Assembly (NCBI GenBank): GCA_001872545.1
Contig: MNWN01000011.1
Coordinates: 2,089 to 66,088 of the forward strand
Length of the DNA: 64,000 bases
Direction of reading: 5' to 3'
Source: Parcubacteria group bacterium CG1_02_58_44
GTDB lineage: Bacteria > Patescibacteriota > Patescibacteriia > SG8-24
Shown piece by piece: positions 10,445 to 37,849 of the stretch (its first letter is position 1; every line of letters starts with the position of its first letter). The notes under the pieces are model-generated. The model was given only the letters and a program-made list of their open reading frames with translations. It was not told the DNA's origin and made no database searches. Position numbers and translations under genes: made by a program.

Positions 10445-10916
10445 CATCATGGCCGACCGGACGGTCGTCCTTGCCGCAAAAACAGGGCAGGGAAGGAAAG
10501 TCCGGACACCCCTCGAGCGGCAACGCCGAGGAAGCAGGTAGTCGCTAACGACGACCGGGAATAAGGTTTGACGGGCATTTCTCCTAGGAAACTGGAGAAG
10601 TCTCTGTCGGCCCCAAGCCTAGGGAAAGTGAAACAGAAAACACACCGCCCGAACCCGAGCGCAAGCGGAGGTGAGGCCTCGAGCGGAACCGAAAGGTTTC
10701 CTCGAGCCGGGTAAGGTTGAAAACGTGGGGTAAGGGCCCACGCGGGACAGCCGCGCGAGCGGCGCCGTGGAAAACCCTGCCTGGTGCAAGAGCAAGTTTG
10801 GTAGCTCGCTAGAGGCCGTCGGCAACGACGGTCCCAGATAGATGGCCGTCCGTTGTCCGGGATGCGTTCACGCGTGTCGGGCGACGACAGAATCCGGCTT
10901 ACAGGTCGACCATGAA
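10445..10916 (+). ncRNA. rnpB: RNase P RNA (bacterial type), larger than usual
   Basis: Conserved blocks are present: GGGAAGGAAAGTCCGGAC (P4 5' strand), GGGTAAGGTTGAAAACGTGGGGTAAGGGCCCACGCGGG (P10-P12 region) and ACAGAATCCGGCTTACAGG (P4 3' strand). Terminal complementary arms CATGGCCGACC...GGTCGACCATG form P1. The track ORFs overlapping this region are therefore spurious. Confidence 0.8.
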
Positions 10917-11099
10917 CCATCGAAAAATCCGCCTTTCCGGGCGGTTTTTCGTTTCTTGTACCTCTCACCCATTTTCCATTTTAGGACAGATAACCGTCTT
11001 TCCAGACGAGGTTTTTCCTTGACAGTTACTTCCCTCCTCCTCTTTCTGTTAAGATTTAAATTGAACCCATCAATTAATTTATCTCTAATTTAGAGAGAT

Positions 11100-11705
11100 A
11101 TGTCGGAAAAGCAAGAAAGGCCACCCTTGGATCCAGAAGCCGAAGGGCAAAATCGGATTGAGCACGCGATCAAGACTGCTAGTGGCATAGCAGACGAGAT
11201 TTTAGAAAACGCAAAAACAAGAGGAATTCAAGATTGGAAGAGAGAAGAAATTGAGAGAAGACCAACGAATCGGGACGAAATGTTTAGTCTGGAACCGTAT
11301 CTTACCATGGTCTTGGTAGAGAGGCTCTCGAGCGAGATTGCCGAAAGGTTCGGAAAAGAAGAATTCTGCGATCTGGCAAGATGGTTGGCACAGAATGAGA
11401 TGGACGGCGTTCTCGTCGAGAATGTAGAGAACATAAGATCAGGAAAAGATGTGGATGAAAATCTCCAATTTTTGGAGGATGCTCGTGCCTTTTCCGCAAA
11501 AAGGCAATTTGATCTTAAAGGCGGGGAATACTACAGCGGTGATGGTTATACTCGAGATCAAATACTTGTTGCAGTCAAGGCGGCGGTCGGAAGATTGGAA
11601 AAGGCTACAGTCATTCAACAAATAGCAAGTCGCTGTCTTACGAATGGCAGCGCCGTCCGTACTGGAGCGACTAGGAAAATTTTGGACATGTTCCTCGCCG
11701 TTTAA
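11100..11705 (+). CDS. Hypothetical protein (201 aa) in a low-GC region
   Basis: Complete ORF with no recognisable motif. Followed by a terminator hairpin. Confidence 0.5.
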   Translation: MSEKQERPPLDPEAEGQNRIEHAIKTASGIADEILENAKTRGIQDWKREEIERRPTNRDEMFSLEPYLTMVLVERLSSEIAERFGKEEFCDLARWLAQNEMDGVLVENVENIRSGKDVDENLQFLEDARAFSAKRQFDLKGGEYYSGDGYTRDQILVAVKAAVGRLEKATVIQQIASRCLTNGSAVRTGATRKILDMFLAV

Positions 11706-11746
11706 GGATCCAAATCGGAAGGAGGCAAGCGAGTTTAGTTCACCAG

Positions 11747-11775
11747 CCCCCATTGATCATGGGGGTTTTGGTTTT
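11747..11775 (+). terminator. Rho-independent terminator
   Basis: ccccc attgatcat ggggg followed by ttttggtttt. Confidence 0.55.
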
Positions 11776-11895
11776 GAGGCAAGTTTTTCGTTGTGAAGCC
11801 TAAACCCCGGGCGTGAGCCCGAGGTGTGTCGCTTAACTGACTAAGATAATCAAAAACCGTCAGAGTCTGATCTGGCGGTTTTTGGATATGGCGTT

Positions 11896-12966
11896 TTACC
11901 TGATACCGATCGTTCGGCGCACCTCTTCCATAGTTTTCCGTGCCGTCTCTCGGGCCCGTTCGGCACCAGCAGCGAAGATCTTCAGTACCCGGTCCGGGTA
12001 GGCCTCCAGCTCGCGTTTGCGTTCGCGGAAGTCGGCGAACCGTTCGGCGATCCGTTCGGCCAACAGCGGCTTGAGTTCGCCGTAGCGGATCGGCTGGCTG
12101 TCGACGAACCGTTGGGCCTCACCCTCATGTCCGAAAAGCCGCAATAGCCCTATTAGGTTCCAAACTCCGGCCTGTCCGCGCAACGTCTCCTCGTCCAGGC
12201 CTCGTTCCTCCAGCGGTTTGGTCAGCAGTTCGTCGAGCTCGGCCTCCGTCAGCGTCAGCCTGCCCTCGGTCTCGCTCACCGCTCCCTTGATTTTCTTCAG
12301 TATGACGTCAGGCTCGTCGGAGAGGGCAATATACGATTTTTCGCCCAGCGACTTGGACATTTTCTTGAGCGGATCGGTCAGCGATCGCAGCTTGGGGGTG
12401 TCGGTCAGGTACGGTTCAGGCTCGGGGAAGTAGTCGACTCCGTACTTGCGGTTGTAGAAGCGTGCGACATCGCGGGTCAGCTCGACGTGTTGGACCTGAT
12501 CGCGTCCGACCGGTACGGCCTCGCCGTGATGGATCAGGATATCCGCTGCCTGCAGCACCGGATAGTCTAGCAGTCCCATATTGACGTTCCTGTCCTGCTG
12601 GCCGGACTTGTCCTTGAACTGCGTCATGCGCTCGAGGAAGGACAGCGGAGTGAGGGTGTTGAAGATCCAGCACAGCTCGGTGTGCTCCGGAATGTCCGAC
12701 TGACGGAAGAGAGTGCATTTTTCCGGGTCCAGTCCGGCGGCCAGCAGTTCGGTCATGATTTCCAGTACCTGCCGCCGCTTGTCCTGAGGGTCATAGTCGC
12801 CGGACAGCGAGTGGTAGTCGGCCACAAAGATCGAGCATTCGTAGTTCGGATCGTCCTGAAGCCGGACCCAGTTCTTGAGCGCACCGACCCAGTTGCCGAG
12901 GTGGACCTGACCCGAGGGTTGAATGCCGGAAATGAGGGTTTTTCGCCTATTGTTGCTTATTGTCAT
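11896..12966 (-). CDS. trpS: Tryptophan--tRNA ligase
   Basis: Class I aaRS signatures are present: GIQPSGQVHLGNWVG (HIGH-type motif) and KMSKS. Length is 356 aa. Confidence 0.9.
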   Translation of the reverse strand: MTISNNRRKTLISGIQPSGQVHLGNWVGALKNWVRLQDDPNYECSIFVADYHSLSGDYDPQDKRRQVLEIMTELLAAGLDPEKCTLFRQSDIPEHTELCWIFNTLTPLSFLERMTQFKDKSGQQDRNVNMGLLDYPVLQAADILIHHGEAVPVGRDQVQHVELTRDVARFYNRKYGVDYFPEPEPYLTDTPKLRSLTDPLKKMSKSLGEKSYIALSDEPDVILKKIKGAVSETEGRLTLTEAELDELLTKPLEERGLDEETLRGQAGVWNLIGLLRLFGHEGEAQRFVDSQPIRYGELKPLLAERIAERFADFRERKRELEAYPDRVLKIFAAGAERARETARKTMEEVRRTIGIR

Positions 12967-16352: not shown

Positions 16353-18311
16353 CTAGACCTCGATCAGCACAGGGAGAACCATCGGCCTGCGTTTGGTCTC
16401 CTTGAACAGGAACGATCCGACCTCGTTGCGGATCTTGCCCTTGATGAACTCCTCGAAGGCCGGAGTCCGGCTGTCCGCGTCCTTGAGTATCTTCTTGACC
16501 TTGATCCGCGCCTTCTCTATAAGCTCCTTGCTTTCGCGCATGTAGATGAATCCGCGCGAGATTATGTCCGGCGAGCTGACCAGCGCTCCGGTCTTCTTGT
16601 CGATCGTGACGATGACCACGAACATGCCCTCGTCGGCCAGCTGTACGCGGTCGCGCAGGACGACCTGCGACACGTCGCCGACGCCGAGTCCGTCGACCAT
16701 GACGTATTCGGTCGAGACCTTCTCGGTGGTCATTCTGATGCCGCCGTTGTCGACCTCAAAGACCTGTCCGTTTTCGGCGACGAAGATGTTTTCGCTGGGT
16801 ATGCCGACTTCCCGCCCCAGCTCCGCATGCGCCTCGAGCATGAAGCGGTTGCCGTGGATCGGAATAAGGTACTTGGGCATGGTCAGGCGCATCATCAGCT
16901 TCAGGTCCTCCTGCTTGGCGTGTCCGCCGGCATGGACGTCGAGGTTGTCGTAGTGGTAGACCTTGGCGCCCTGCTTGACCAGCGTGTCCTTGAGCGACTG
17001 GACGGTCCGTTCGTTGCCCGGAATGACCGAGGACGAGAAGACCACGCCGTCGCCCTTGCGCAGCGAGACGGTCCGATGTTCGCCGTTGGCCACCCGCATG
17101 AGCACGGCGTTGCGTTCGCCCTGGGCTCCGGTGCAGATGACCAGTGCCTTGTGGTCGGGGAGGCGCAGGAAGTCGCGGGCCTCGATGATGGTGCTGGGCT
17201 TGAACTTCATGTAGCCCATCTCCTTGGCGATCTCGACGTTGTTGCTCATCGAGCGCCCTTCGATCAGCACTCGGCGGTCGTACTTTTCGGCCAGTTCGAT
17301 GATCTGCCCCACTCGCGTCAGCAGCGACGAGAACGTCCCGATGATCAGGCGTCCCGGATGCTCGCGGATGATGCGTTCCATCTCCTTGCCGACCTGGCTC
17401 TCGGAGATCTGGTGGCCCGGACTGGTGGCGTTGGTCGAGTCCGACAGGAGCGCCAGCGCGCCGCTCAGTCCGAACGCGGCGATGTGGGTCAGGTCGATCG
17501 GATCGTCGTTTACCGGCGTGTAGTCGAACTTGAAGTCGCCGGTGCAGAGGATGGTTCCGTAGGGCGTGTGCAGCGCCGCGCCGAAGGCATCGGAGATGTT
17601 GTGGTTGACGTGGAACGGCTCGAAGACGAAGTGCCGACCGAGCTGGATCTTCTTCTCTGAGGTGACCAGCTGGATCTTCAGCTTGCTGACCGTACCGAAT
17701 TCCTCCTGCCGTTTCTTGAGAATTCCCGCGGTGAGCGGGGCAGTGAAGATCGTCGGGTAGCCGAGGCGTCCGATGGTCAGGGGAATTCCGCCGATGTGGT
17801 CCATGTGTCCGTGCGTCACGATGACGCCGCGGATGTTCTTCTCCTTGCCTTTCAGCGAGGAGATGTCCGGGATGATGTAGTCGATGCCCGGCATGCCCTC
17901 CTCCGGGAACATCAGCCCGATGTCGAGGATGATGATGTCGTCGCCGCACTCGAAGACGGTGCAGTTGCGGCCGATCTCCTCGAGTCCGCCCAAGGCGTAG
18001 ATCCTGAGCTTGGGGGTGCCGGCCGGAGCGTGCGTCTGATGCGCTATTTCGCGGCTAAGCGGCCCGACTCCGGGTTTTTTGGACTGAGGTCCGTCGGCTA
18101 CGGCGGATGGGATGACATGCTGCTGCTGCGGTCCGCGGCGTCCGGACGGGTATCCCGACGACGGTGGTCGGCGGCGTCTCTGGTCGTGACCCGAGCGGCG
18201 CTGGCCTTGGTTTGATCCGGCTTGGCCGGATGTCTTTTCTTTAGGTGTCATAGTTTTTGTCGGTTCTGCATTGGATGGGGACAGCAAAGGAGCAAGCGTC
18301 CGTCGCCGCAT
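16353..18311 (-). CDS. rnj: Ribonuclease J with about 100 aa N-terminal basic low-complexity extension
   Basis: The metallo-beta-lactamase motif VTHGHMDHIGGIP, beta-CASP and RNase J C-terminal regions are all present. The N-terminus is Arg/Gly/Pro/Gln-rich. Confidence 0.9.
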   Translation of the reverse strand: MRRRTLAPLLSPSNAEPTKTMTPKEKTSGQAGSNQGQRRSGHDQRRRRPPSSGYPSGRRGPQQQHVIPSAVADGPQSKKPGVGPLSREIAHQTHAPAGTPKLRIYALGGLEEIGRNCTVFECGDDIIILDIGLMFPEEGMPGIDYIIPDISSLKGKEKNIRGVIVTHGHMDHIGGIPLTIGRLGYPTIFTAPLTAGILKKRQEEFGTVSKLKIQLVTSEKKIQLGRHFVFEPFHVNHNISDAFGAALHTPYGTILCTGDFKFDYTPVNDDPIDLTHIAAFGLSGALALLSDSTNATSPGHQISESQVGKEMERIIREHPGRLIIGTFSSLLTRVGQIIELAEKYDRRVLIEGRSMSNNVEIAKEMGYMKFKPSTIIEARDFLRLPDHKALVICTGAQGERNAVLMRVANGEHRTVSLRKGDGVVFSSSVIPGNERTVQSLKDTLVKQGAKVYHYDNLDVHAGGHAKQEDLKLMMRLTMPKYLIPIHGNRFMLEAHAELGREVGIPSENIFVAENGQVFEVDNGGIRMTTEKVSTEYVMVDGLGVGDVSQVVLRDRVQLADEGMFVVIVTIDKKTGALVSSPDIISRGFIYMRESKELIEKARIKVKKILKDADSRTPAFEEFIKGKIRNEVGSFLFKETKRRPMVLPVLIEV

Positions 18312-18465
18312 CGTTTCCGATTCGAAAGATATCGTTGATTAGGTTAGTCGGCGAAGATGTCGCCATGCCACCGACGGAAAGTTCCGACGGCAGTTTACCT
18401 TTCGGCAGAATTGAGCAGGGGGCAGGAGGTGGAGGCTATCCGCTATTCAACTGTTCCGAAAATGA

Positions 18466-18545
18466 TCTCAGTCTGTCCTGCCGCTCCTGATGGACCCATA
18501 ACTGATGAGTCCGTCGGGAGTGGTGCCGTGGGTGGGATCGTCTCC
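18466..18545. repeat. Direct repeat copy 1, about 72 bp, containing a degenerate copy of the tRNA-Leu 3' end
   Basis: tctgtcctgccgctcctgatggacccataactgatgagtccgtcgggagtggtgccgtgggtgggat is nearly identical (1 mismatch) to 18678-18750. Confidence 0.7.
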
Positions 18546-18677
18546 TTGCCCGCCCGAACGGCGGGCTTCGTCACCTGGGCGGCGCCGGACCCTGCACCAG
18601 TTCGGGTCCGTCGGCACTCGCGCGCTCGCGTCTGGACGGACGCTCGCCGCTCGCTGCCGTCTGTTCAAATCCCTTCG

Positions 18678-18750
18678 ATTTTGGTCTGTCCTGCCGCTCC
18701 TGATGGACCCATAACTGATGAGTCCGTCGGGAGTGGTGCCGCGGGTGGGA
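18678..18750. repeat. Direct repeat copy 2, overlapping the 3' end of tRNA-Leu
   Basis: The same 72 bp sequence as copy 1. The last 17 nt are the complement of the tRNA-Leu 3' acceptor/T-arm end. Confidence 0.7.
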
Positions 18751-18820
18751 TTTGAACCCACACGGAGTTGCCCCCACTAGCTCCTGAAGCTAGCGTGTCT
18801 GCCAGTTTCACCACCGCGGC
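18734..18820 (-). tRNA. tRNA-Leu (anticodon CAG), class II with a long variable arm and genomically encoded CCA
   Basis: Reverse complement is GCCGCGGTGGTGAAACTGGCAGACACGCTAGCTTCAGGAGCTAGTGGGGGCAACTCCGTGTGGGTTCAAATCCCACCCGCGGCACCA. It has a 7 bp acceptor stem, the anticodon loop TTCAGGA, a 15 nt variable arm and a GTGGG/CCCAC T stem. Confidence 0.85.
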
Positions 18821-18835
18821 ATTACGTTCGCTGTT

Positions 18836-20683
18836 TTATCTCCAGACTTTTTTTGTCTTTACGTACCAGTCGGCTACACCAGTGAACCTGTCAGCCGGCG
18901 TGAAGACGACTGTCGGTTCGATGCCCTTCACTCGCCTGTCGACTGCATAGGTGTAGTTTGGACTGTAGAGGAAAATGGCCGGCAGGTCTTCGATCAGCAG
19001 GTCCTGAAAGTCCTGGTAGAGGGACTCTCTCTCTTCACTGTCGGTCGTGGCACGGGCCTTTTCCAGCAGCTGGTCGGCCCGTCGGTTCGAGTACCGCGAC
19101 AGGTTGAGTCCGCCGTTATCGATCTGAGAAGAGTGCCAGAAGGGAAACGGGTCGGGGTCCTGGCCGAGGATCTCTCCGTAGAGCAGGACGCTGTAGTCGC
19201 GCGGACGAAGCTTGTCCTGCTGGATTCGCGAGACCGGAACCAGCTCGATTGCTACCTGGACTCCGATGCCTTCCCACATCCGTTTGACGGTTTCGGCGAC
19301 GGAGACGTTCTCCTGAGAGTCGACTGTAGTCAAGGTTATGGACAGCGGAGTGTCGATCTTGTCGCCGTCGGCACCTGGCAGCATCTTGCTGCGGACGTTG
19401 CCGTCCCCGAGCTTCCAGCCCTCGTCGTCGAGCAGCTTGCCGGCCGCCGTCAGATCTTGGGAGTAGCGTTTGATCTCGGAGTGGAATCCGACGAATCCAG
19501 GCAGAATCGGTCCATGGACCGGCACCCCGTCGAACCCCAGAGTTTCGCTGAGCACCAGATCCTTGTCGATGGCCAAGGCCAGTGACTGCCGGACAGCCTT
19601 GCTTTTCAGTACCGGATTCTTGTCCTGGTTGAAGAAGATCGCCGTGTACTGGGGCAGTCGGAAGGTGTAGGTCATTATTGAACCGATCTCATTGACCGAC
19701 TCGCGATATTCTAGTGGCAAGAAGCTGATTCCGTCAACCTTACGTTCGGTGAGGGCATCGGCGGCCTGGTCGAAATTTGGGTAGAAGACGAAGGTCATTT
19801 CCGCCAGATGCGGCTTTTGGCCGTAGAATTCGTTGTTTTTCGAGAGGGTGTATGACCGAATCGCCCCTTTCTTGTCTTTGGTCAGGCTCTTGAAACGGAA
19901 AGGACCGGTGCCGATCGGCTTGACGTTCAGTTCGGCTCGGGTGGCGTTCTCCGGTATGACTTCCTGCCAGAGGTGAATCGGCATGATGCCGACCGTCAGC
20001 AGCGACAGGAACGGCGCAAACGGCTCCTTGAGACGGAAGATGACCGTACGTTCGTCGGGGGTTTCTATCTCCACGTTGCGAAATTGGGCGATCAGCGGGC
20101 TGTTGAAGGCCGGATCCTTGATGAAGTTGAAGGTGGCGGCGACGTCCGACGCTCCGAACGGAGCCCCGTCATGCCAGGTGACGCCGTCGCGCAGGACGAA
20201 GGAATAGGTCTTTCCGTCGTCGGCAGTCTCGAACGATTCGGCCAAGTCCGGTACCAGGTTGCCTTCGCTGTCCGTGCGAACCAGTCCGGAGAAGACCAAT
20301 TTGGAGATGTCCAAGTCGACGTCGTTGGAGGAGGCCAGTATGGGATTGATGAAGCGCGGTCCGCCCACTGAAGCCTCGGTGTACTGTCCGCCGTCGGCTG
20401 CTGTGTTCGTCATGTGGGAAGAGACGAACCTAACGCCGATTGCGCCTACGGCCAGGATGACCGCAATAGTCAGGATACCGACCAAGGTCTTTTCCTTGGG
20501 AGAGAGGAAACGAGAGAGATACTTGAGCTGACCGGAGGACGGAAGTTTTTTGCCGGAAAGCCTCAAGACGAGCCGTCGGTCGAGGCTCGAATCGTTGCGG
20601 GCCACACCGGCAGCCAACAGTTTTTTGATCTTCAGCCGTCCGCGACTAACGAGTTCGCGAAGACGGGCAATTGTGGAGTCCAC
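18836..20683 (-). CDS. ABC transporter substrate-binding protein, family 5 (OppA/DppA-like peptide or nickel binding), with an N-terminal membrane anchor
   Basis: The body QYTEASVGGPRFINPILASSNDVDLDISKLVFSGLVRTD... is typical of SBP_bac_5. The track ORF runs to 21031, but its first ~90 codons overlap secG in another frame. The true start is probably an internal GTG/TTG upstream of the TM segment LVGILTIAVILAVGAIGV. The start coordinate is approximate. Confidence 0.7.
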   Translation of the reverse strand: MDSTIARLRELVSRGRLKIKKLLAAGVARNDSSLDRRLVLRLSGKKLPSSGQLKYLSRFLSPKEKTLVGILTIAVILAVGAIGVRFVSSHMTNTAADGGQYTEASVGGPRFINPILASSNDVDLDISKLVFSGLVRTDSEGNLVPDLAESFETADDGKTYSFVLRDGVTWHDGAPFGASDVAATFNFIKDPAFNSPLIAQFRNVEIETPDERTVIFRLKEPFAPFLSLLTVGIMPIHLWQEVIPENATRAELNVKPIGTGPFRFKSLTKDKKGAIRSYTLSKNNEFYGQKPHLAEMTFVFYPNFDQAADALTERKVDGISFLPLEYRESVNEIGSIMTYTFRLPQYTAIFFNQDKNPVLKSKAVRQSLALAIDKDLVLSETLGFDGVPVHGPILPGFVGFHSEIKRYSQDLTAAGKLLDDEGWKLGDGNVRSKMLPGADGDKIDTPLSITLTTVDSQENVSVAETVKRMWEGIGVQVAIELVPVSRIQQDKLRPRDYSVLLYGEILGQDPDPFPFWHSSQIDNGGLNLSRYSNRRADQLLEKARATTDSEERESLYQDFQDLLIEDLPAIFLYSPNYTYAVDRRVKGIEPTVVFTPADRFTGVADWYVKTKKVWR

Positions 20684-20757
20684 AGTGGATGTACCTGCGA
20701 TTATAGGACGGACGTTGACCCTACCAGGAGGGGTCCGATCCAGAAGATACGCACGGT

Positions 20758-20982
20758 TTAGGCTTGCGGAACGAGAACGTTCGCCAAAGCCAGCGCGAAG
20801 AACAGGCTGGCGAACACGATAGTTGACCGGAAGAGAATCTTCTCCAGTCCGCGTTTGGTTCGATAGACGTTGCCGTCGCCGCCGAAGGTGGCACCTAAGC
20901 CCGTCCCGCGGGCCTGCAGCAGTATGCCGGTCACTAAGATGACGGAAACTACGATTTGGGCGATGTTTAATGCTAATTTCAT
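20758..20982 (-). CDS. secG: Preprotein translocase subunit SecG
   Basis: MKLALNIAQIVVSVILVTGILLQARGTGLGATFGG has the SecG signature Gly-rich loop between two TM helices. The start is the ATG at 20980-20982 rather than the longer track ORF. Confidence 0.8.
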   Translation of the reverse strand: MKLALNIAQIVVSVILVTGILLQARGTGLGATFGGDGNVYRTKRGLEKILFRSTIVFASLFFALALANVLVPQA

Positions 20983-21188
20983 ACCATTTTGTCTCGTCCG
21001 CGCTTGTCGGACGATCATACAGATCAATCACGAAACTGAAGTTAGGTTATCAAATCGGACTTGACGTGTCAATGTCAGGCGACCTCAGCCGGTGAACAAA
21101 AAATGTCTTCATTTCGGTTTTTTGCTTTCGAGTTCGGGATTACGGACGGGCCATTATCCCCACAGTCAGTCAGGTTTCCAGCTCGGAG

Positions 21189-21968
21189 TTGCGCTATACT
21201 GCTAAAGGTATGGAAACGCGAAACGGTTTGACGAGCCGCGGTCAAGTCATCGGCAGGGGACTGGTCGTCTTAGGATGGACAGTTTTCTTGCTGGCACTGA
21301 CTCTCGTTTTGATTTTGGGAGTGAAGGCCTTCGGCTACTATCGGCAGATACGTTCTGGGGATCTGGTCGAGTTGCCGCAGTACGGGAACCGCCTGTCGGT
21401 CGGGAGCGATGGCGGAAACAGCCAAACGGTCGCCCTGAAGGAGATTGAGGACCTGCTGAATTCGGCGGATGGACCGGCGATCGGCCCGTCGATCGACGGC
21501 GCATTCGCGACCGTGGTGATGTTCGGGGATTTCGAGTGCCCCTTCTCCAGGGATTCGTCGACCGTATTCCGTCGGCTGTCGGTGCGCTACGGGGATCAAG
21601 TCAGGTTCGTCTACTTGGACTTTCCGTTGAGTTCGATCCATCCGTTCGCCGCGCTGTCGGCCGAGGCGGCCGAGTGCGCCGGTGAGCAGCTGCGCTATTG
21701 GGAGTACTTCGATCGGCTTTACGGCAATTCCTCGACGCTCAGTCAGGCCGTCCTGCTGCAGTACGCCCGGGAGACCGGGCTCGACAGTGAGCAGTTCGAG
21801 CGTTGCCTGGACAGCGGACGTTTCGCCGAGAAGGTCGAGGCCGACCGTTCCCTGGCCGAACGTCTGGGATTGAAGGGTACTCCATCGTTTTTCATAAACG
21901 GTCGTCGGATCGAGGGCGCCATACCGGAGCAGGACCTCGACCGACTCTTACAGAAAATGATCAATTGA
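21189..21968 (+). CDS. DsbA-family thiol:disulfide oxidoreductase with an N-terminal membrane anchor
   Basis: A TM segment is followed by a thioredoxin fold with the active-site context VVMFGDFECPFSRDS (a CxxS/C-type motif) and a DsbA-like helical insertion. Confidence 0.7.
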   Translation: MRYTAKGMETRNGLTSRGQVIGRGLVVLGWTVFLLALTLVLILGVKAFGYYRQIRSGDLVELPQYGNRLSVGSDGGNSQTVALKEIEDLLNSADGPAIGPSIDGAFATVVMFGDFECPFSRDSSTVFRRLSVRYGDQVRFVYLDFPLSSIHPFAALSAEAAECAGEQLRYWEYFDRLYGNSSTLSQAVLLQYARETGLDSEQFERCLDSGRFAEKVEADRSLAERLGLKGTPSFFINGRRIEGAIPEQDLDRLLQKMIN

Positions 21969-21973
21969 GACAT

Positions 21974-23944
21974 ATGGTTCGTTTACAGGCCAATCGCGGG
22001 TGGATATCCATGATCTCGTCCGGTCTGGCGGGACTGCTGGTCGGACTTAACCTGTCGGTCCTGGTGCTGTTTTCTCTGGTTCCGACGGCTCAAGCCACAA
22101 GCAGCCTGACCTGTAACGGGAGCTACGGCTGCTTCACCAGTACGGCCTGCACGCTTTCGCATGGCGATTTCGTGGCCTGTCCCGACAGATGCGACACTGA
22201 GGGGCGAAGCGGTCGCGGTTACTGCTATTCGCGTCCCGAACGGGTCACGTTGGCAGTCAGGATCGGGAGCCTGACCCTAGTCGATGACCTGGCGCAATAC
22301 ATAGAGAACCTCTACCGGGTCGCCATTGGGATCGCGGCGATACTTTCCGCGGCCATGCTTATGATCGGCGGCCTGCAGTGGTTGACGTCCGGAGGTTCGG
22401 ATCAGGCCGGCAAGGCACGGGAGAGGATCATGAATAGTGTGATCGGATTATTATTGACAATTTTTGCCTACATTATTTTGAACACCATCAATCCAGCTCT
22501 GGTTCATATGCAGATGCCGCGTTTACCCATGGTTCGACAGGAACTTTTTGTTCGTTGTGAGTTGTTTAAAATGCGAGCTGCCTGCGGACAACCGTTCGGG
22601 ATTATAGAGATGGAAAATGCGGATCCTAGTGCCGGTGAGACCGAAAGATATGAAGTCACGTCCGACCTCAATCATCCGGACCTGTTGACCGAGTGCGTCG
22701 GGGGGAGCTGCGCCGAGGCCGGACTGGATGACGGCTCGTACACCTGTCAGAGGCAGTCTGGATCGACGACTCCGGCCCCTGCCGTTCCGGCCGGCGGTAC
22801 GGTTAACGCTGGTGTGGGGACTGGCGGTTCTCCGGCCGAAGGGGCAGTCACGACCGGCAACGGAACGGGAGGCGCATCAGTCGGTGCGGGTTATCAGTGC
22901 CTACCCTGCACGGTGGCGGATCAGATCTGTCAGGGGCTCGGACCAAGCAACAGTTGCTGCGGCGGGTACTGCGGTGCGACTGCGAACACGGCTGATGCGG
23001 CCAATGCTCGAGTTCAAGCTGGGACTGTAGTTGAACAGACAAGAGAGGTTGTTGGAGCTACCTTATCTGGAACTTGTGGTAATGGAATGGACGGGACTAG
23101 ATGTGGTTCAAGTGATGAATGCCGTGGTGGCAAGTGTGTTAATGCAGCGTTGTATTGGCAGGGATTGTCTACATTAGCCAATACGGCTGGAGAGTCGGCT
23201 GCGAATGTCTGGCATATAGTAACTGATCCTACCGGTATTTTAGATAGATTTATTGGTGGTGTTAGACAGGCTGGTCGAGCTGTTACTAACTCAACTGCAC
23301 TAGCAGATGCTTGGACTGGCGGTATTTGTTCGAGTGGAGCAGTTGGTGCGCCATGTAATACCGACATTGATTGTGGTTCTGGTATGGTTTGTTTGGATGA
23401 CTATGGAGTCCATGTCTGTTCGCGACCGATAGTCGGCGGGTATTGTTCTGAAAATCGTCACTGTGGTAGCAATCAATGCATCGCTGAATTGGGGGCATGT
23501 ATGGGTTCTGCCGGTACCGGCTTCGGCTGTGACGATGATGCGACCTGCGTTCAAAGGTATGGTGAGGGTTACGAATGCCGTGACGGCATAGCTGAAGGAC
23601 CTATCTGTACCAGCGGTGAGGACGGAAGTCTGTGTATTGACAATTCGCAATGCGACAGTCACCATTGCTATACCAGTGCAATCATGGATGCAGGAGAAGA
23701 TGTTGGTCTCTGCGTTTCTGGCGAAGACGGCAGCGGGTGCGACGCCGCCGACGACTGCAATAGCGGGGTCTGCTACAACAGCGACGGCTACGGTCAGGTC
23801 TGTGTCGGTCCGAGTACCGAGTCCGGTTCGCCCTGTATTCCCGGTCAGAGCGAAAGGCAGTGTGCCGGTGACCTGATTTGCAACGAGACCAGCCGTACCT
23901 GCGTCCGTCGCGCCTCGAATTCGGCCGGATCCGGCACTCATTAG
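21974..23944 (+). CDS. Secreted Cys-rich protein with a VirB2/TrbC-type pilin-like module (two TM helices) and C-terminal disulfide-rich repeats
   Basis: Start taken at the internal Met [22 protein letters not shown] (signal/TM). The segment [56 protein letters not shown] is homologous to the N-terminal modules of the 44884 and 47162 proteins. The C-terminal half consists of C-x(3-6)-C-x(3-6)-C repeats. Confidence 0.65.
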
Positions 23945-23965
23945 GTGCAGCAAGCCCTTTCGACG

Positions 23966-23992
23966 AAAGACCGCGCCAGCCGCGGTTTTTTG
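23966..23992 (+). terminator. Rho-independent terminator-like hairpin followed by T6
   Basis: gaccgcg ccagc cgcggtttttt lies just 3' of the 21974..23944 gene. This supports uvrA starting downstream at 24136. Confidence 0.45.
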
Positions 23993-24135
23993 GTCGGACG
24001 GACCGCCGTTCGTCGGATGTCGAAAGCATCCGGCACAGTGGACTCTTGTCAGAAAAAGGACGGTGTACTAAACTGTCCGTTGACTTATATTTCGATATTA
24101 GCGGACCGCATCCTGCGCGTGCGGCAATCAGGCAG

Positions 24136-27120
<2,985 letters not shown>

Positions 27121-27146
27121 CGGGGTTTCCCATTCCCCAGATAGAC

Positions 27147-27176
27147 AAAAAAAGAGACCGAGAGGTCTCTTTTTTG
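27147..27176. terminator. Bidirectional terminator hairpin
   Basis: aaaaaaagagacc gaga ggtctctttttttg lies directly after the uvrA stop. Confidence 0.55.
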
Positions 27177-27216
27177 ATTGTGTAAGTTCGTTCGGGTTCG
27201 GGAGGGACGACAGTCG

Positions 27217-27879
27217 CTAGCGGTTCCGCCTTGCTCGAATCGCTCGTCCGACGTCAACAACGAGGTTGAACAGCGGGAAAACGATCGGTCGTCGACCGAG
27301 AATCCGCCAAGTCTCGAGCAGGTCCGCCTCACTGCATACCGAAAGGTGTATGCAGAGGAGTTCGAGTTCCCGCTGGTGTGCCAGTAGGATGCCTACTGCC
27401 CGTCGCCAGCCGACGGTCAGTGTCTCGTCGTCCTTATTGCTGGGAACGGATATCCTGTCGGCAGGCAACTCTTCAGTCAATGGCCGGTCGGTCCAGGGAC
27501 TGTCTCCATGACAGTTGAGAACTCTCAGTTCATCGGCCTTGGCTACGGCTTTAGTTAGATCAATGAAGGAATTTTCGTTCCAACCGAAGACAAGTTGCTC
27601 GATGGCCAGTCCGCCCAACTCGACGGCCATTTCGTCCCAGAGCGAGACCGGTCCCGGGGCCGGATTCTTGAGTAAGGAAAGTCGTCCATCGGGACGGGTC
27701 TGGACGAGACTGATGCCGATTGGCAACAGTGTGGGCGAGTGCCAGGCCACAAGTAGGTGTCCGGCCGCACGTACGACTTCTCGTCTAAAGTCCTCTAGTC
27801 TTTCCAGTCTTATCAAAAGACACCTCCTCGTCGTCATTGACGACGACACTATAAGAGCATTTTCCGGATTCAAAGTCAA
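27217..27879 (-). CDS. Hypothetical protein (220 aa). The call is uncertain because several overlapping ORFs exist on both strands
   Basis: It is the longest ORF in the 27.1-27.9 kb gap and has no recognisable motif. High GC inflates spurious ORFs, so confidence is low. Confidence 0.3.
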   Translation of the reverse strand: MTLNPENALIVSSSMTTRRCLLIRLERLEDFRREVVRAAGHLLVAWHSPTLLPIGISLVQTRPDGRLSLLKNPAPGPVSLWDEMAVELGGLAIEQLVFGWNENSFIDLTKAVAKADELRVLNCHGDSPWTDRPLTEELPADRISVPSNKDDETLTVGWRRAVGILLAHQRELELLCIHLSVCSEADLLETWRILGRRPIVFPLFNLVVDVGRAIRARRNR

Positions 27880-28100
27880 GATGCCCGGTACTTTTTTGCC
27901 GGGAATGAAGTGACCTATAGTCTATATTTTTGTCTTCAGTTTCGGGTCTGAATTGAATTCCGCTTTTGATCCACTTTTAAGGTCGTTTAAGCCAAAAAAA
28001 CGGCTTGCCTTAGCTCGGAATATTGACAAAATGGCTAGGTTATGGTAATAATGTACCCTTAATCAGGGATTCAAATAACAGCTTAGTCAGGCAACCTAAT

Positions 28101-29843
28101 ATGAAAAGGAATATCGTCTTCGCGGCCATTGCGGCCGTGATCGTGTCCGTAGTGCTGTCGACCGTTCCGGCGTGGGCGTTCAGCAAGTTTATTAACGTTC
28201 CGTCGGACAAGATCGGCGGCAGCTGGTCGATCGACGAGCTGACCCGTGACCACGACGGTCGGACCGTCGAGTCCTTCAAGGTGGACCGTGACCTGGTGGT
28301 CTGGACAGAGCGTGACGATGTCCGATCCATCCGGTACCTGTGGGGCTGGAACGGCATTTCGGCGTCCTTGCTGGCGACGATGCCCTTTTCCGACTGGCAG
28401 GGTTCTGATTTCTATTCTGCCGTCGAGGGCAACTACGACGTCGCTGACGGTACAGCCGTCTGGACCATGTACGACGGGTCCGACTCTGAGATCTATGCCT
28501 TCCGTGACGGTCACGTGAGCAGGATCACCGACAACGGTTTCAGCGACCTGCATCCGATCACCTCGGGCGGCCGCATCGCCTGGACCGGCGACCTCGGTTC
28601 GGTCACCAAACTGATGGTCATGGAGACCGACGGCAGCGTCCGAACGGTCGATCAGTACCACGTTCTCGACTACGCCTTTTCCGAATCCAACCTGTATTGG
28701 ATGAACATGAAGGTCGGGGAGACCGTGCAGCGCGTGATGGTCGACGGCGGGGACGTGTCCCGGTCCGTGGGCTACGGCGAGGTTCGTCCGTTCGACTTTC
28801 CGTTCTTCGTCGCCGACGGCAACGGCGGAGTCGCCTGGCGACGTATGGAGACCGCCGGTAATGTCGAGGTCAACGTATTCTACGTGTCAGACGGCGTGCG
28901 GACGAGCGAGGTTCTGCGCCGTGAGCGTTGGGCCAACGACATCCGGCTCGAGGACACCTACAGCGGTTCCGTACTGGTCAACTCGTCCGACGTTCGCACC
29001 AAGAACATCGACGACGTGACCCTACTCCAGGCCAGCGGCGCCCAGCAGTCCGTGATTCAGGTCAAGACCTCCATGGCCAAGGCCAGGTTCTCCGACGGCG
29101 GTGCCTACGTCAGGCATGTCCTGCCGGAGACTTCCAGTCCGCTTCTGGTCCGCCATGGCGACGGGTTCGAGACTTGGATCTCCGATACCCGGATTGAGCG
29201 CGACCTGTTCGACGCTGGAGACAGCACTGTCGCCGGTGCCATGCATGATCATGGCGGTGTAGTGCTCTACGACACCGACACCCGCGAAGTGACCGAGATC
29301 AACCGTGACATCAAGGCCCGGCAGATCGTCACCAACGGCGACACCGTCGTTTGGCTCGAAGGCGCTTCCGGCAGCTCGATCCTGATGGCGGCCCGTCCGT
29401 CCATCTTGGTCGGCAACTCGGCCGGAGCCAAGACGGTCGCCGGAAGGCTGGTCAAGTCGCCAGTCGACTCGGCCGTCTATCTGGCCACTCCGGACGGGGA
29501 GAGGTTTATCTTCCCGACTGAGGGCGAGTTCTACAGCTGGTACGGCAATTTCGACTCGCTGACCGAGCTGTCGGTCCAGGAGATGTCGTCCCTGTCGCTG
29601 GCCGGTGCGGTTCTCTATCCGGTCGGTGCCCTGGTCAAGTCCCCGTCCTCGCCTAAGGTCTATGCGGTCGGCGGTGACGGCAGGCTGAACTGGCTGGCCG
29701 ACGCGAACATCGTCTCCACCTACTACGGCTCCTCCTGGAATCGGCTGGTGAGAGACATGCCCGAGTCCTTCCTGGCCGCTTACCGTTCTGGCCGCAATGT
29801 GGCCAGTACCGGGGAGTACTACATGATCGCCGCGACCAAGTAG
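28101..29843 (+). CDS. Secreted hypothetical protein (about 580 aa) with a signal peptide
   Basis: Start taken at MKRNIVFAAIAAVIVSVVLSTVPAWAFS, a signal peptide. The body is rich in Trp/Gly/Asp/Thr repeats suggestive of a beta-rich extracellular fold. No family was recognised. Confidence 0.6.
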   Translation: MKRNIVFAAIAAVIVSVVLSTVPAWAFSKFINVPSDKIGGSWSIDELTRDHDGRTVESFKVDRDLVVWTERDDVRSIRYLWGWNGISASLLATMPFSDWQGSDFYSAVEGNYDVADGTAVWTMYDGSDSEIYAFRDGHVSRITDNGFSDLHPITSGGRIAWTGDLGSVTKLMVMETDGSVRTVDQYHVLDYAFSESNLYWMNMKVGETVQRVMVDGGDVSRSVGYGEVRPFDFPFFVADGNGGVAWRRMETAGNVEVNVFYVSDGVRTSEVLRRERWANDIRLEDTYSGSVLVNSSDVRTKNIDDVTLLQASGAQQSVIQVKTSMAKARFSDGGAYVRHVLPETSSPLLVRHGDGFETWISDTRIERDLFDAGDSTVAGAMHDHGGVVLYDTDTREVTEINRDIKARQIVTNGDTVVWLEGASGSSILMAARPSILVGNSAGAKTVAGRLVKSPVDSAVYLATPDGERFIFPTEGEFYSWYGNFDSLTELSVQEMSSLSLAGAVLYPVGALVKSPSSPKVYAVGGDGRLNWLADANIVSTYYGSSWNRLVRDMPESFLAAYRSGRNVASTGEYYMIAATK

Positions 29844-29899
29844 TCCGGCGCGTTACGTGGATCGCCAGCAGGACCTGCCTCTCTGGTAAGTACCAACCT

Positions 29900-30040
29900 G
29901 TCGTCCCGGGCGGAGATCCGGGGTCCAGAAATAACGAACATCCGTCCGAGAAATCGGGCGGATGTTTTGTGTCATTCCGACCTTGAGTCGGGATCCAGGA
30001 TCCGATCCTTTCTGCTTCTGGGTCCCGGATCTCCGCCCGG
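29900..30040. repeat. Inverted-repeat element (MITE-like) between the secreted-protein gene and rplS
   Basis: tcgtcccgggcggagatccggggtccag (29903-29930) and its inverted partner gggtcccggatctccgcccgggacga (30011-30037) flank about 80 bp. Both track ORFs here read GSPPGTT out of the repeat arms. Confidence 0.55.
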
Positions 30041-30164
30041 GACGACAATACTCTATGTTATCTGTCATCTCGAAACCGCCTTCTTAAATATGTCATCCCG
30101 GAATTGCGAATGCAGTGAGCAATATCCGGGATCCACGATCCGTCCGGTACGACATCACTTTTGA

Positions 30165-30205
30165 AAAATCAACAAACCAAAACCCCGGACCTGAGCCCGG
30201 GGTTC
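30165..30205 (-). terminator. Rho-independent terminator of rplS
   Basis: On the minus strand: AACCCCGG GCTCAGGT CCGGGGTT followed by TTGGTTTGTTGATTTTT. Confidence 0.5.
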
Positions 30206-30234
30206 ATCTTTTGTAGTAGGTCCGTTCGCGGACA

Positions 30235-30783
30235 TTACTTCTTGTCGACCGGAACCTCCTTGAGGCGCTTCTTGTACTTGCCGCGCAGGAAGTAGAGCTT
30301 GGAGCGGCGGACGCGGACCTGCTTGACCACTTCGATCTTCTCGATCGTCGGCATGGCCAGCGGGAAAATGCGTTCGACGCCAAATCCCTTCGAAACCTTG
30401 CGTACCGTAATGGTGGCGCTGATCCGGTCATGACCCTTTTTGCCGATCACCAGTCCCTCGAAGATCTGGATGCGCTCGCGTTCGTCGCCGCGCGGAGTGA
30501 CGTCCTTAATCTTGAGGTGAACTCGGACCGTCATTCCGGGGACTATCTTCTGGGCCGACTCCTCCAGCTTGATTTCCTCGGCTACAGTCTCTTCGGCCGG
30601 GGCTTCTTCGCCTTCAGCAGGAGCTTCATCCTCGATTTCAGTCGGCATTTCCTTGGTTGCAGTATCCTCAACCGGGGTCTCTTCGCCTTCGGCTTGCGGC
30701 TGCACTTCGGTTTCGACCGGAGTCTCCTCGACCGGCGTCGTCTCAGTCGTTTCTTCGGTAGTCTTGTTGTCTTCTTCGGCCAT
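30235..30783 (-). CDS. rplS: 50S ribosomal protein L19 with about 75-100 aa acidic N-terminal extension
   Basis: The C-terminal part [85 protein letters not shown] matches L19. The N-terminus [27 protein letters not shown]... is Glu/Thr/Pro-rich. Start chosen at the internal ATG (30781-30783). Confidence 0.85.
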
Positions 30784-30953
30784 ATTTAGCTCAGTTGACG
30801 TATTTTTTGGGTCGATAACATCCGATTTTAGGCGGAATGTTTTCAGAACGAACCTAGCATACACGTAGGCTCGACTCAAGTCAAGCGGTCTTGGGTCAAA
30901 AAAGGAGCGTCATTTGGCTTCCTTTTTTGCATAACCGAGGCAAAAGTCGCGAT

Positions 30954-31964
30954 TCAGCCGGTGTCTTCGTCTGGACTGACCGAAGCCGTCCGGTTGGTCA
31001 GCCTTTCAGAGGTCTCACCACGTTTTCTTAATACGGTCAGGAAGGTCTCTAACTCCTGAGGCAGAGGTACGCTGAACTCCAGCCTTCGTCCATCCTTGGG
31101 GTGGCGGATGGCCAGGCGGCGGGCGTGCAGGAAGAGCCGGCCAACGGGTAGGGGAGACTTGCTCGGACCGTACAGCTTGTCGCCGGCCACCGGACAGCCG
31201 ATCGCCTTGAGGTGAGTCCTGATCTGATGCGTACGTCCGGTCTCGGTATGGACCGCGAGCAGCGCCGCTCCCGGCAGATATTCCTCGACCGAGTAGTGAG
31301 TAACGGCCGGACGGTCGCCTTCGAGCGGCTGACTGCGTGCGGCCATGCGTCGTTCGCTGGTCGAGCGTCCGATCGGCAGATCGATCGTACCTTCCTCGTT
31401 CGGCGGATTGCCGACGGTCAGCACCGCGTACTCCTTCTCCACGTCGTGGGTCTGAAAGCTCTTCTTGAGCGACTGATAGGCCAGGTCGGTCTTGGCTACG
31501 ACCATCAGTCCGGAAGCGTCCTTGTCGAGCCGATGCATGATGCCGGGGCGTTCGGGACCTTCGCCGATGTCCCTGATCGGCGGATAGTGGGCCAGGAGCG
31601 CGTTCGCCAAGGTGTCCTGCTCGTTGCGGACCGTCGCGTGGACCAGCAGGCCGGACGGCTTGTTGACCACGATCAGGTCGTCGTCTTCGTAGACGATCTC
31701 CAGACTGATGTCCGGCCGGGGCAGCAGCACGAACGGCGCGTCGCTGGCCGCCAGTGCGTCGTCGGAGAAGGTGATCAGGTCGCCAATGCGCAGCGCCTCA
31801 TGCGGTGACTTGGCCGGGCGTCCGTTCAGCTGGACCAGATTCCGCTTGATTACCTTCTGCACCGCGGAGCGTGAGATCGATCCGTCTCTCTCGGCCAGAA
31901 AGACATCAAGTCTCTTGCCGACGTCCTTTTCCTCGATTGTGATTTGGGTTTCCATAGCGAGCAT
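30954..31964 (-). CDS. rluD: RluA-family 23S rRNA pseudouridine synthase (RluD-like) with an N-terminal S4 domain
   Basis: IVYEDDDLIVVNKPSGLLVH and the catalytic motif HRLDKDASGLMVVAK. An S4-like N-terminus is present. Confidence 0.88.
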   Translation of the reverse strand: MLAMETQITIEEKDVGKRLDVFLAERDGSISRSAVQKVIKRNLVQLNGRPAKSPHEALRIGDLITFSDDALAASDAPFVLLPRPDISLEIVYEDDDLIVVNKPSGLLVHATVRNEQDTLANALLAHYPPIRDIGEGPERPGIMHRLDKDASGLMVVAKTDLAYQSLKKSFQTHDVEKEYAVLTVGNPPNEEGTIDLPIGRSTSERRMAARSQPLEGDRPAVTHYSVEEYLPGAALLAVHTETGRTHQIRTHLKAIGCPVAGDKLYGPSKSPLPVGRLFLHARRLAIRHPKDGRRLEFSVPLPQELETFLTVLRKRGETSERLTNRTASVSPDEDTG

Positions 31965-36919: not shown

Positions 36920-37849
36920 TCAATTGGCGCCGAACCTGTCGCCGGTGCGGCTGATCAGTCCGGCGATCTCGAGTTCGGACAATGCCACCAGGACCTGTCC
37001 GACGTCAAGTCCCGACCGTTCGGCCAGCTCATCCGGCGAGATCGATTCCAGGCGGACGATGTCGAGCAGCGTGCCGGCTCGGCCGTTCGGTGGGGGCGTC
37101 TGGACGGTCGGAATCTCGTCGATGTCCAGCACCTTGAGCAGTCCCTCCGGTTCGAGCAGGGGATGAGCTCCTTGGGAGATCAGCCAATTGGTGCCACGGC
37201 TGGTCTCCGTGGTTACCGGTCCGGGCACGGCGAAGACTTCCAGTCCGAAATCCAGGGCGAACTTGGCGGTGATCAGCGCTCCGGACTTGATTGGCGCCTC
37301 GATGACGACCGTAGCGAGAGTCAGTCCGGCCACGATTCGGTTGCGCACCGGAAAGTGGTACGGCTGTGGTTGGGTGCCGCAGGGGTACTCGGAGGCCAGT
37401 GCGCCGCCGGAAGAGACGATGCGTTCGGCCAGCCGGCTGTTGGTGCGCGGGGTGACCGATTCGCTGTCCACGCCCGAACCCAGGATGCCTACCGTCAGGC
37501 CGCCGGCCTCCAGCGTCGCCAGATGCACTGCCGCATCGGTGCCGAGCGCCAGTCCGCTGACGATGCCGATGCCGTGCCGCACCCAGGTCGGCACGAACCG
37601 CCTGATCACCGCCTCGCCATAGTTCGTCATTCGCCTCGTGCCGACTACCGCTACGAGAGGCTGTCGGGTCAGAGCCTCGGTCCGTCCGCGCACGAATAGA
37701 CGTTCCGGACAGCCGAAGAGGGGTCGAAGTCGGGGAGGGAAACCGTCGTCCGTTCGCTTGATTTCTTTGGTCCCGTTCATAACGGGGCCGACCGTAGCGT
37801 CCGGTGTTTCGGCTGTCAAATTTTGGACCGAAGTCCGTCTCCTAGGCAA
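36920..37849 (-). CDS. dprA: DNA-processing protein A (DprA/Smf)
   Basis: Rossmann-like domain with GLALGTDAAVHLATLEAGGLTVGILGSGVD and FALDFGLEVFAVPGPV. The C-terminal winged-helix-like tail is present. The dprA-topA adjacency is typical. Confidence 0.85.
   Translation of the reverse strand: MPRRRTSVQNLTAETPDATVGPVMNGTKEIKRTDDGFPPRLRPLFGCPERLFVRGRTEALTRQPLVAVVGTRRMTNYGEAVIRRFVPTWVRHGIGIVSGLALGTDAAVHLATLEAGGLTVGILGSGVDSESVTPRTNSRLAERIVSSGGALASEYPCGTQPQPYHFPVRNRIVAGLTLATVVIEAPIKSGALITAKFALDFGLEVFAVPGPVTTETSRGTNWLISQGAHPLLEPEGLLKVLDIDEIPTVQTPPPNGRAGTLLDIVRLESISPDELAERSGLDVGQVLVALSELEIAGLISRTGDRFGAN

Follow-up and report, generated by a model that had tools for sequence, protein, structure and literature searches.

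What lies at the locus under study? The window, by which we mean the whole stretch of 64,000 nucleotides (nt) from Parcubacteria group bacterium CG1_02_58_44, has an overall guanine plus cytosine (GC) content of 58.3% and includes an open reading frame (ORF) for a cysteine-rich protein with a pilin-like module, here called the pilin-module gene. Parts of this gene depart strongly in codon usage from their surroundings. The gene and its upstream neighbour are:

21974-23944, plus strand: pilin-module gene, recognised from its ORF and translation, Pfam PF18895, hydropathy and a cysteine map, with syntenic orthologs in six lineages
21189-21968, plus strand: DsbA-like thioredoxin gene (Pfam Thioredoxin_4 9.4e-22, DSBA 5.4e-19; synteny tables)

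The pilin-module gene is one open frame of 656 amino acids. Its product starts with a signal or transmembrane segment, continues with an N-terminal knob holding six cysteines and a VirB2-like two-helix hairpin, and ends in a cysteine-rich C-terminal region of ~460 amino acids. Hydrophobic segments lie at about residues 11–41, 112–138 and 151–177 (centred on residues 20–32, 121–129 and 160–168); none of the 46 cysteines falls within them, six preceding the hairpin, in the knob, and 40 following it. The Pfam match to T4SS_pilin (PF18895), at residues 103–172, scores 33.6 bits against a cut-off of 26.6 and thus passes the gathering score, while NCBIfam returned a pilin-like match below threshold only. 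UniRef names an ortholog after a Dickkopf-type cysteine-rich domain; this domain had no Pfam match in the 656-residue protein, and a PDB profile search stayed below threshold (E = 0.017–0.078, profile positions 442–501). An AlphaFold2 model built from a seven-sequence alignment has a mean predicted local distance difference test score (pLDDT) of 51.9, with values under 50 across most of residues 313–448. The predicted product is a membrane-anchored, disulfide-rich surface or envelope protein with a VirB2-like pilin module, likely with a role in cell-cell contact. The DsbA-like gene directly upstream, whose position is kept in all relatives, probably encodes a disulfide oxidoreductase serving the 46-cysteine protein, and uvrA follows downstream. 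In those window ORFs that were scanned with Pfam, there was no VirB4 or other component of a type IV secretion system (T4SS).

The gene order SBP5-SecG-DsbA-pilin-UvrA is common to all six sampled Uhrbacteria lineages, as far as each contig extends, which marks the pilin-module gene as a vertically inherited core gene rather than part of an island. With E ≤ 0.001, an exhaustive profile-free search returned 15,278 homologous cluster representatives, of which 34 pass E ≤ 1e-30. Most of the homologs cover only the N-terminal half (about residues 15–340); the C-terminal part, including the AT-rich patch described below, is shared with the closest relatives only. Two further plus-strand genes of the window likewise start with a VirB2-like pilin module fused to a large ectodomain: one at 44884–47130 (748 amino acids; T4SS_pilin at 26.4 bits, just below the 26.6 cut-off, and Big_5) and one at 47162–57238 (3358 amino acids; T4SS_pilin at 46.5 bits, TrbC, Big_5, TIG and Big_7). 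The larger protein carries cysteine repeats of the CGDG type, seen as repeat families D1–D3 and D7. Judging from these architectures, surface proteins of this genome seem to use the pilin hairpin to anchor themselves in the membrane.

The original prediction had singled out an AT-rich, in-frame stretch with low GC content at third codon positions (GC3) at about 22990–23440. Sliding windows of 40 codons bear this out: GC3 is 0.65–0.80 upstream, falls to 0.15–0.35 between about 22990 and 23440, stays at 0.42–0.50 up to about 23700 and then returns to 0.68–0.78. Both strings quoted as examples of this codon usage are present, at 23126–23158 and 23235–23267. As background we took the remaining ORFs called in the window (the gene list has 37), which in 100-codon windows have a GC3 of 0.745 ± 0.094 and a minimum of 0.39. 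On this scale, the patch descends to 0.25, about five standard deviations under the background mean, and the 24 lowest 100-codon windows of the entire 64 kb all lie inside the pilin-module gene; at 40 codons, the minimum is 0.15 in the patch and 0.30 anywhere else. GC1 and GC2 are nearly flat, so the shift is one of codon choice. As to extent, the proposed boundaries hold for a sharp core (22991–23413), but the anomaly is wider: a partly low-GC3 tail runs on to about 23700, and a second, smaller AT-rich patch at about 22430–22620, most sharply at 22427–22570 (GC 0.39–0.48), had been missed. Within-gene GC3 spans a range of 0.65 in the window gene versus 0.25–0.55 in relatives.

Where do these segments belong? 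The closest non-identical homolog is the syntenic ortholog of Candidatus Uhrbacteria RIFOXYC2_FULL_47_19 (L001; 78% amino-acid identity, contig GC 0.477), and we aligned the two genes by codons, comparing 22 kb of the low-GC genome in all. The flanks are 67–73% identical, at a synonymous third-position identity of 0.35–0.43; along the codon alignment, their nucleotide identity runs from 0.60 to 0.77 and their synonymous identity from 0.2 to 0.55, with GC3 about 0.7 in the window against about 0.35 in the relative. Both AT-rich tracts have a synonymous identity of 0.81–0.92; along the alignment, nucleotide identity there climbs to 0.90–0.97 and synonymous identity to 0.83–0.96, and the two genomes have equal GC3. 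The segments are:

22427-22570, plus strand: tract A, amino acids 152–199 (second pilin helix and juxtamembrane segment), 97.2% identical to the 48%-GC lineage
22991-23413, plus strand: tract B, amino acids 340–480 (core of the first-noted patch), 92.7% identical to the 48%-GC lineage, GC3 about 0.27
23414-23700, plus strand: low-GC3 tail of low-GC-type composition (GC3 0.44), about 72% identical to the sampled low-GC lineage

Tract A has four mismatches in 144 positions, against 23% overall (maximum chi-square 49.1, null maximum 17.9), and tract B 31 in 423 (76.3 against 18.3); neither value was reached in 300 shuffles of codon columns (0/300 each). A scan of synonymous sites only, which removes the effect of protein conservation, gave 4/44 mismatches for tract A and 21/128 for tract B, each with 0/200 permutations. 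Synonymous third-position identity is 0.83–0.92 in tract B. Over windows of 40 codons, nine pairs of neighbouring orthologs average 0.486 ± 0.122 and reach 0.83 at most, and the top 19 windows by this measure all fall in tracts A and B. Sites informative among three taxa (window, the low-GC L001 and the high-GC relative L007) are mixed outside the tracts, and within them nearly all unite the window with L001. The direction of mismatches tells the same story: those with G or C in the window and A or T in the relative, set against the reverse, number 86:27, 73:29 and 58:11 in the flanks, 1:4 and 13:17 in the tracts and 38:29 in the tail. The unbiased tract mismatches mean that the tracts carry no sign of amelioration. 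Between tracts A and B lie 420 nt of recipient-type sequence encoding an Ala/Gly/Thr/Pro-rich linker with indels between the lineages. In the tail, the synonymous scan is marginal (23464–23728: 21/58 mismatches, 11/200 permutations); its composition suggests that it is probably part of the same import from an unsampled low-GC donor, or else an older tract. A JGI variant of the low-GC ortholog (P0013) is without the six residues TADAAN at the left edge of tract B, at about 22985–23005 of the window.

This pattern is in line with two elements of the original prediction, namely that the compositional switch marks recombined, horizontally derived DNA (nucleotide identity, synonymous identity and composition all point to the low-GC relative) and that the gene is a mosaic surface-protein gene (block-wise divergence, 0/300 and 0/200 permutations). 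Its description of the segment as cysteine-rich repeats was half right: tract B encodes one four-cysteine module and most of a second, and also a 63-residue cysteine-free stretch. The idea of an added repeat cassette, by contrast, has to be given up. What is seen is allelic replacement of an orthologous segment that is present in every relative and that spans the cysteine-free linker, too.

Could the low GC3 be ancestral, retained while GC rose elsewhere in the genome? The tract-B segment can be aligned in all orthologs, and the composition of each follows its own genome. The high-GC relatives L007 (GC 0.636) and L009 (GC 0.60) have GC3 of 0.83–0.90 and 0.65–0.90, respectively, in every block of the gene, with 0.83 and 0.68 in the tract-B segment. 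The low-GC relatives L001 (GC 0.477), L010 (GC 0.466) and L012 (GC 0.528) have block values of 0.21–0.63, and 0.30–0.41 in that segment. For tract A, GC3 is 0.49 in the window, 0.51 in low-GC and 0.90 in high-GC relatives; for tract B, the window has 0.27 and L001 0.33. As the window gene alone is discordant, its low GC3 is not ancestral here, and the segments are at home in the low-GC lineage and alien to the window genome. The original prediction had named uniform presence and composition in all relatives as evidence of ancestry; the segment is indeed present in all, but not with uniform composition, and the test thus favours acquisition. The reverse direction, with the window lineage as donor, was ruled out by the low-GC composition of the tracts together with the compositional uniformity of the low-GC gene.

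A variant of ancestral retention would invoke constraint at the nucleotide level, through an RNA structure, an antisense gene or a regulatory element that resisted a genome-wide rise in GC. An antisense stop-free stretch of 117 codons (23014–23367) does lie over tract B and is open in the low-GC ortholog, too. Such stretches of at least 80 codons, however, occur throughout the gene in every relative, and an antisense gene over tract B was rejected on that account. Synonymous conservation in tracts A and B is confined to the pair of window and L001 (0.81–0.83), with other pairs at 0.24–0.54 and a single further raised value, 0.67 for L007 and L009 in tract A. The two high-GC relatives have GC3 of 0.83–0.90 and 0.68–0.90 there, tract B folds no better than its shuffles (z = −0.83), and the gene has no Rfam match. 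We thus regard constraint as very improbable.

Neither of these Uhrbacteria lineages has been cultivated, and all that is known of them comes from metagenome assemblies or metagenome-assembled genomes; an assembly chimera, in which reads of a co-occurring low-GC relative were stitched into a high-GC contig, must be considered. Such a scenario could draw on one public genome of the low-GC lineage, in which the gene is broken at two contig ends within tract B (P0011 ends in ...ESAANI and P0012 starts with DRFIGG), a behaviour that assemblers show at shared near-identical stretches. Yet the mosaic allele recurs with identical junctions, without a single junction mismatch, in seven other contigs from three assembly pipelines and at least two separate sequencing runs: NCBI GCA_002322515.1 and GCA_002785005.1, Logan SRR1534154 and SRR6240744, ENA ERZ27293393 and ERZ27293407, and JGI 3300008002, the last a contig of 1,116 nt that begins within tract B and spans the 3′ junction only. 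The sole single-nucleotide polymorphism (SNP) in the gene across these eight contigs is at 23090, inside tract B, with G (Asp) in the window and three others and A (Asn, the state of the low-GC lineage) in three assemblies. Low-GC-lineage DNA for the gene is itself identical across seven contigs (L001–L003, L013, L018, L020 and L021). Tracts that diverge by 2.8% and 7.3% from this invariant lineage cannot have its reads as their source, and all four junctions of the two tracts are in frame. Among the accessions retrieved, donor-type (SRR3989339, ERZ272547xx/ERZ272548xx) and recipient (SRR1534154, SRR6240744, ERZ272933xx/ERZ272934xx) sets differ, which speaks neither for nor against co-occurrence of the two lineages in one run. 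A chimeric origin is very unlikely, and the mosaic allele is fixed in the sampled population.

That same invariance bears on programmed diversification, whether by conversion from silent cassettes of the pilE/pilS type or by a diversity-generating retroelement aimed at a surface protein. In favour of this, the protein is surface-exposed and has a pilin module, and variable arrays of VirB2-like pilins are frequent in Patescibacteria (PMC12102498). A repeat search of all 64 kb, however, found no direct or inverted copy of tract A or B, no reverse transcriptase had a Pfam match among the window ORFs scanned, and the allele is invariant between samples save for the SNP at 23090. Mismatches to the relative affect all bases, are not adenine-specific and include 25 transitions out of 32. 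Programmed diversification is accordingly a very improbable source of the tracts. The antigenically variable adhesin and the donor cassettes envisaged by the original prediction find no support either: the window holds no donor copy, and the allele barely varies in the seven other contigs.

The explanation we favour, and hold with high confidence, is that a core gene of a 58%-GC Candidatus Uhrbacteria had at least two segments replaced by homologous segments of a related Uhrbacteria lineage of low GC (about 47–48%). Four things are directly established: divergence is mosaic, composition matches the donor type, the gene is orthologous and syntenic, and the allele is fixed in the population sampled. 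As in a mosaic gene, divergence is block-wise at synonymous sites as well, composition is of donor type, and orthologous sequence was replaced without insertion and with the frame kept. For most housekeeping genes compared (window 16354–31956 against L001 4376–20220), the proteins of the two lineages are 85–95% identical, with 75% in DsbA, and yet the lineages stand about 10 points apart in genome GC, with GC3 of 0.72–0.84 against 0.38–0.54. This is a large shift in composition for so short an evolutionary distance. Segments 22427–22570 and 22991–23413, the latter probably extending to about 23700, would have been swapped by homologous recombination, that is, by gene conversion of imported DNA. 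DNA imported in this way keeps the codon usage of the donor, and GC3 collapses while reading frame and protein architecture stay intact.

By which route might the DNA have entered? Probably by natural transformation, with RecA-type strand exchange as the next step. One gene of the window speaks to this route:

36920-37849, minus strand: DprA gene (Pfam DNA_processg_A 1.6e-65, DprA_WH 7.9e-11), a recombination mediator of natural transformation

With DprA, the window encodes at least one part of what the proposed import would need. In Saccharibacteria, which belong to the Patescibacteria, natural competence has been demonstrated and depends on ComEC; conservation of com genes throughout the Patescibacteria is reported as well, and roles of DprA and ComEC have been described (PMC10633639). 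A phage vector was considered and rejected, as neither an exact-match DNA scan nor a protein scan of viral contigs found the tract segment. That there are two tracts would be explained if a single imported fragment was integrated with a gap, the Ala/Gly/Thr/Pro linker, which aligns poorly, being left in its recipient state. Given divergences of 2.8% in tract A and 7.3% in tract B, two separate imports are equally possible. The donor would be an unsampled low-GC relative of RIFOXYC2_FULL_47_19, alike in the conserved modules and different in the hypervariable part; scans of metagenomes and genomes with the patch protein recovered only the RIFOXYC2_FULL_47_19 lineage (L013 and L018 being identical to L001).

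The same difference between the tracts could reflect another history under the same mechanism, in which an unsampled third low-GC lineage donated to both lineages independently, or in which tracts A and B arose separately, at different times. The tail, low-GC in type yet 28% divergent from the sampled lineage, would fit such a history, and import of low-GC DNA into a low-GC genome would be compositionally invisible. On the other hand, the rates of synonymous mismatch, 4/44 in tract A and 21/128 in tract B, do not differ clearly, and the low-GC gene bears no mark of a foreign segment. We consider this version distinctly unlikely.

Several points weigh against replacement from a low-GC Uhrbacteria lineage as we propose it. 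Two marks of a mosaic gene, a near-identical donor and a non-mosaic allele in sister strains, were not found: scans of metagenomes, genomes and viral contigs yielded no donor near 100%, the best matches being 97.2% for tract A, 92.7% for tract B and about 72% for the tail, and no allele with high GC3 throughout occurs in contigs of the window lineage, so that high-GC relatives at a greater distance had to stand in for the state before recombination. A divergence of about 25–30%, as in the flanks, is high for RecA-dependent exchange. Allele identity was judged from assembled contigs. Finally, with comparison to the low-GC lineage limited to 22 kb, weak further candidates in uvrA and the TrpS/TyrS gene bear on whether such tracts are special to the pilin-module gene. 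The first of these is:

25806-25893, plus strand: possible third, very short exchange tract in uvrA, tentative (1/26 synonymous mismatches against the low-GC lineage, 2/200 permutations)

In this stretch, GC3 drops to 0.46, the mean of the gene being 0.84. In the TrpS/TyrS gene, 11980–12043 has 0/20 synonymous mismatches to the low-GC lineage (4/200 permutations) and a GC3 of 0.85 in both genomes, which is high for the low-GC one. These two stretches may stem from additional small exchanges that ran in opposite directions.

Is the pilin-module gene singled out by exchange between these lineages? Gene flow between lineages of Uhrbacteria that lie 10 GC points and about 25% in sequence apart could favour the variable cysteine-rich ectodomain of this pilin-anchored, DsbA-coupled protein as its target, and the imported allele could have swept to fixation by altering a host- or surface-binding interface. 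We find this doubtful. If true, it would place on record a natural case of adaptive transformation in Patescibacteria outside Saccharibacteria. Replacement by homologous recombination, for its part, matters irrespective of such a sweep. As two close Patescibacteria lineages differ by 10 GC points, DNA exchanged between them is visible by codon usage alone, and synonymous-site identity and GC3 together make it simple to look for further events of this kind in the clade. The case provides breakpoint-resolved evidence of homologous exchange between distinct uncultivated Uhrbacteria, fits the competence machinery of cultivated Saccharibacteria and shows an exchange that reached a surface protein likely involved in cell-cell contact.

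Elsewhere in the window, a bacterial class A RNase P RNA (10449–10917, plus strand; 169.9 bits) is 90% identical to that of the low-GC lineage, and up to 98% in 150-nt windows; a spurious ORF of 174 codons overlaps it on the opposite strand. Between this RNA and the TrpS/TyrS gene lies a low-GC island (10968–11848, GC 0.47) with a plus-strand ORF at 11100–11705 (GC3 0.30–0.44) that has no significant Pfam match. The island has no similarity to the matching interval of the low-GC relative and is a variable spot, possibly acquired. Finally, a direct repeat of 75 nt (18464–18538 and 18677–18751, 95% identical and 213 nt apart) lies between the RNase J gene, which starts at 18311, and tRNA-Leu(cag) (18734–18820, minus strand). 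In the low-GC lineage, each copy is conserved to about 81%, and Rfam has no match; the repeat may be an unrecognised leader or RNA element.

How does the pilin-module gene compare with known systems? Mosaic alleles arising from interspecies transformation and homologous recombination are represented by penA of Neisseria and by pbp2x and pbp2b of Streptococcus pneumoniae. As in those genes, blocks of sharply differing divergence occur in an ortholog at its own locus, they match a related species, and frame and architecture are kept. Here, however, the blocks can be seen by composition alone, since about 10 GC points separate donor and recipient; the gene belongs to an uncultivated Patescibacterium, and sampling reaches the donor only to 93–97% identity. 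Discontinuous imports with interspersed recipient sequence follow natural transformation in Helicobacter pylori and in pneumococcus. The arrangement of donor-type tracts of 144 and 423 or more nt with 420 nt of recipient type between them, all in one gene, is reminiscent of such imports, although in our case a single event is only inferred and the gap is a low-complexity, indel-bearing linker that is poor for heteroduplex formation.

With Neisseria pilE/pilS (PMC6796969, PMC13463697), the gene shares that a surface protein with a pilin name was changed by gene conversion of internal segments. It differs from that system in that the window contains no silent cassette, the population shows no variability, the source is another lineage and the module is of the VirB2-like T4SS type, not a type IV pilin. 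Relative to the PF18895 proteins of Patescibacteria (PMC12102498), our protein has a long cysteine-rich ectodomain (656 amino acids in total), is encoded by a single-copy gene outside any pilin array and sits among SecG, DsbA and UvrA rather than beside virB4, yet it shares with them an N-terminal module above the gathering score and a two-helix hairpin. The pilin-module gene is clearly mosaic, though in an ordinary way, and is no cassette-switching system. Its mechanism is already known and mosaic surface-protein genes are familiar in other bacteria; what is new is an unusually legible case in an uncultivated Patescibacterium.

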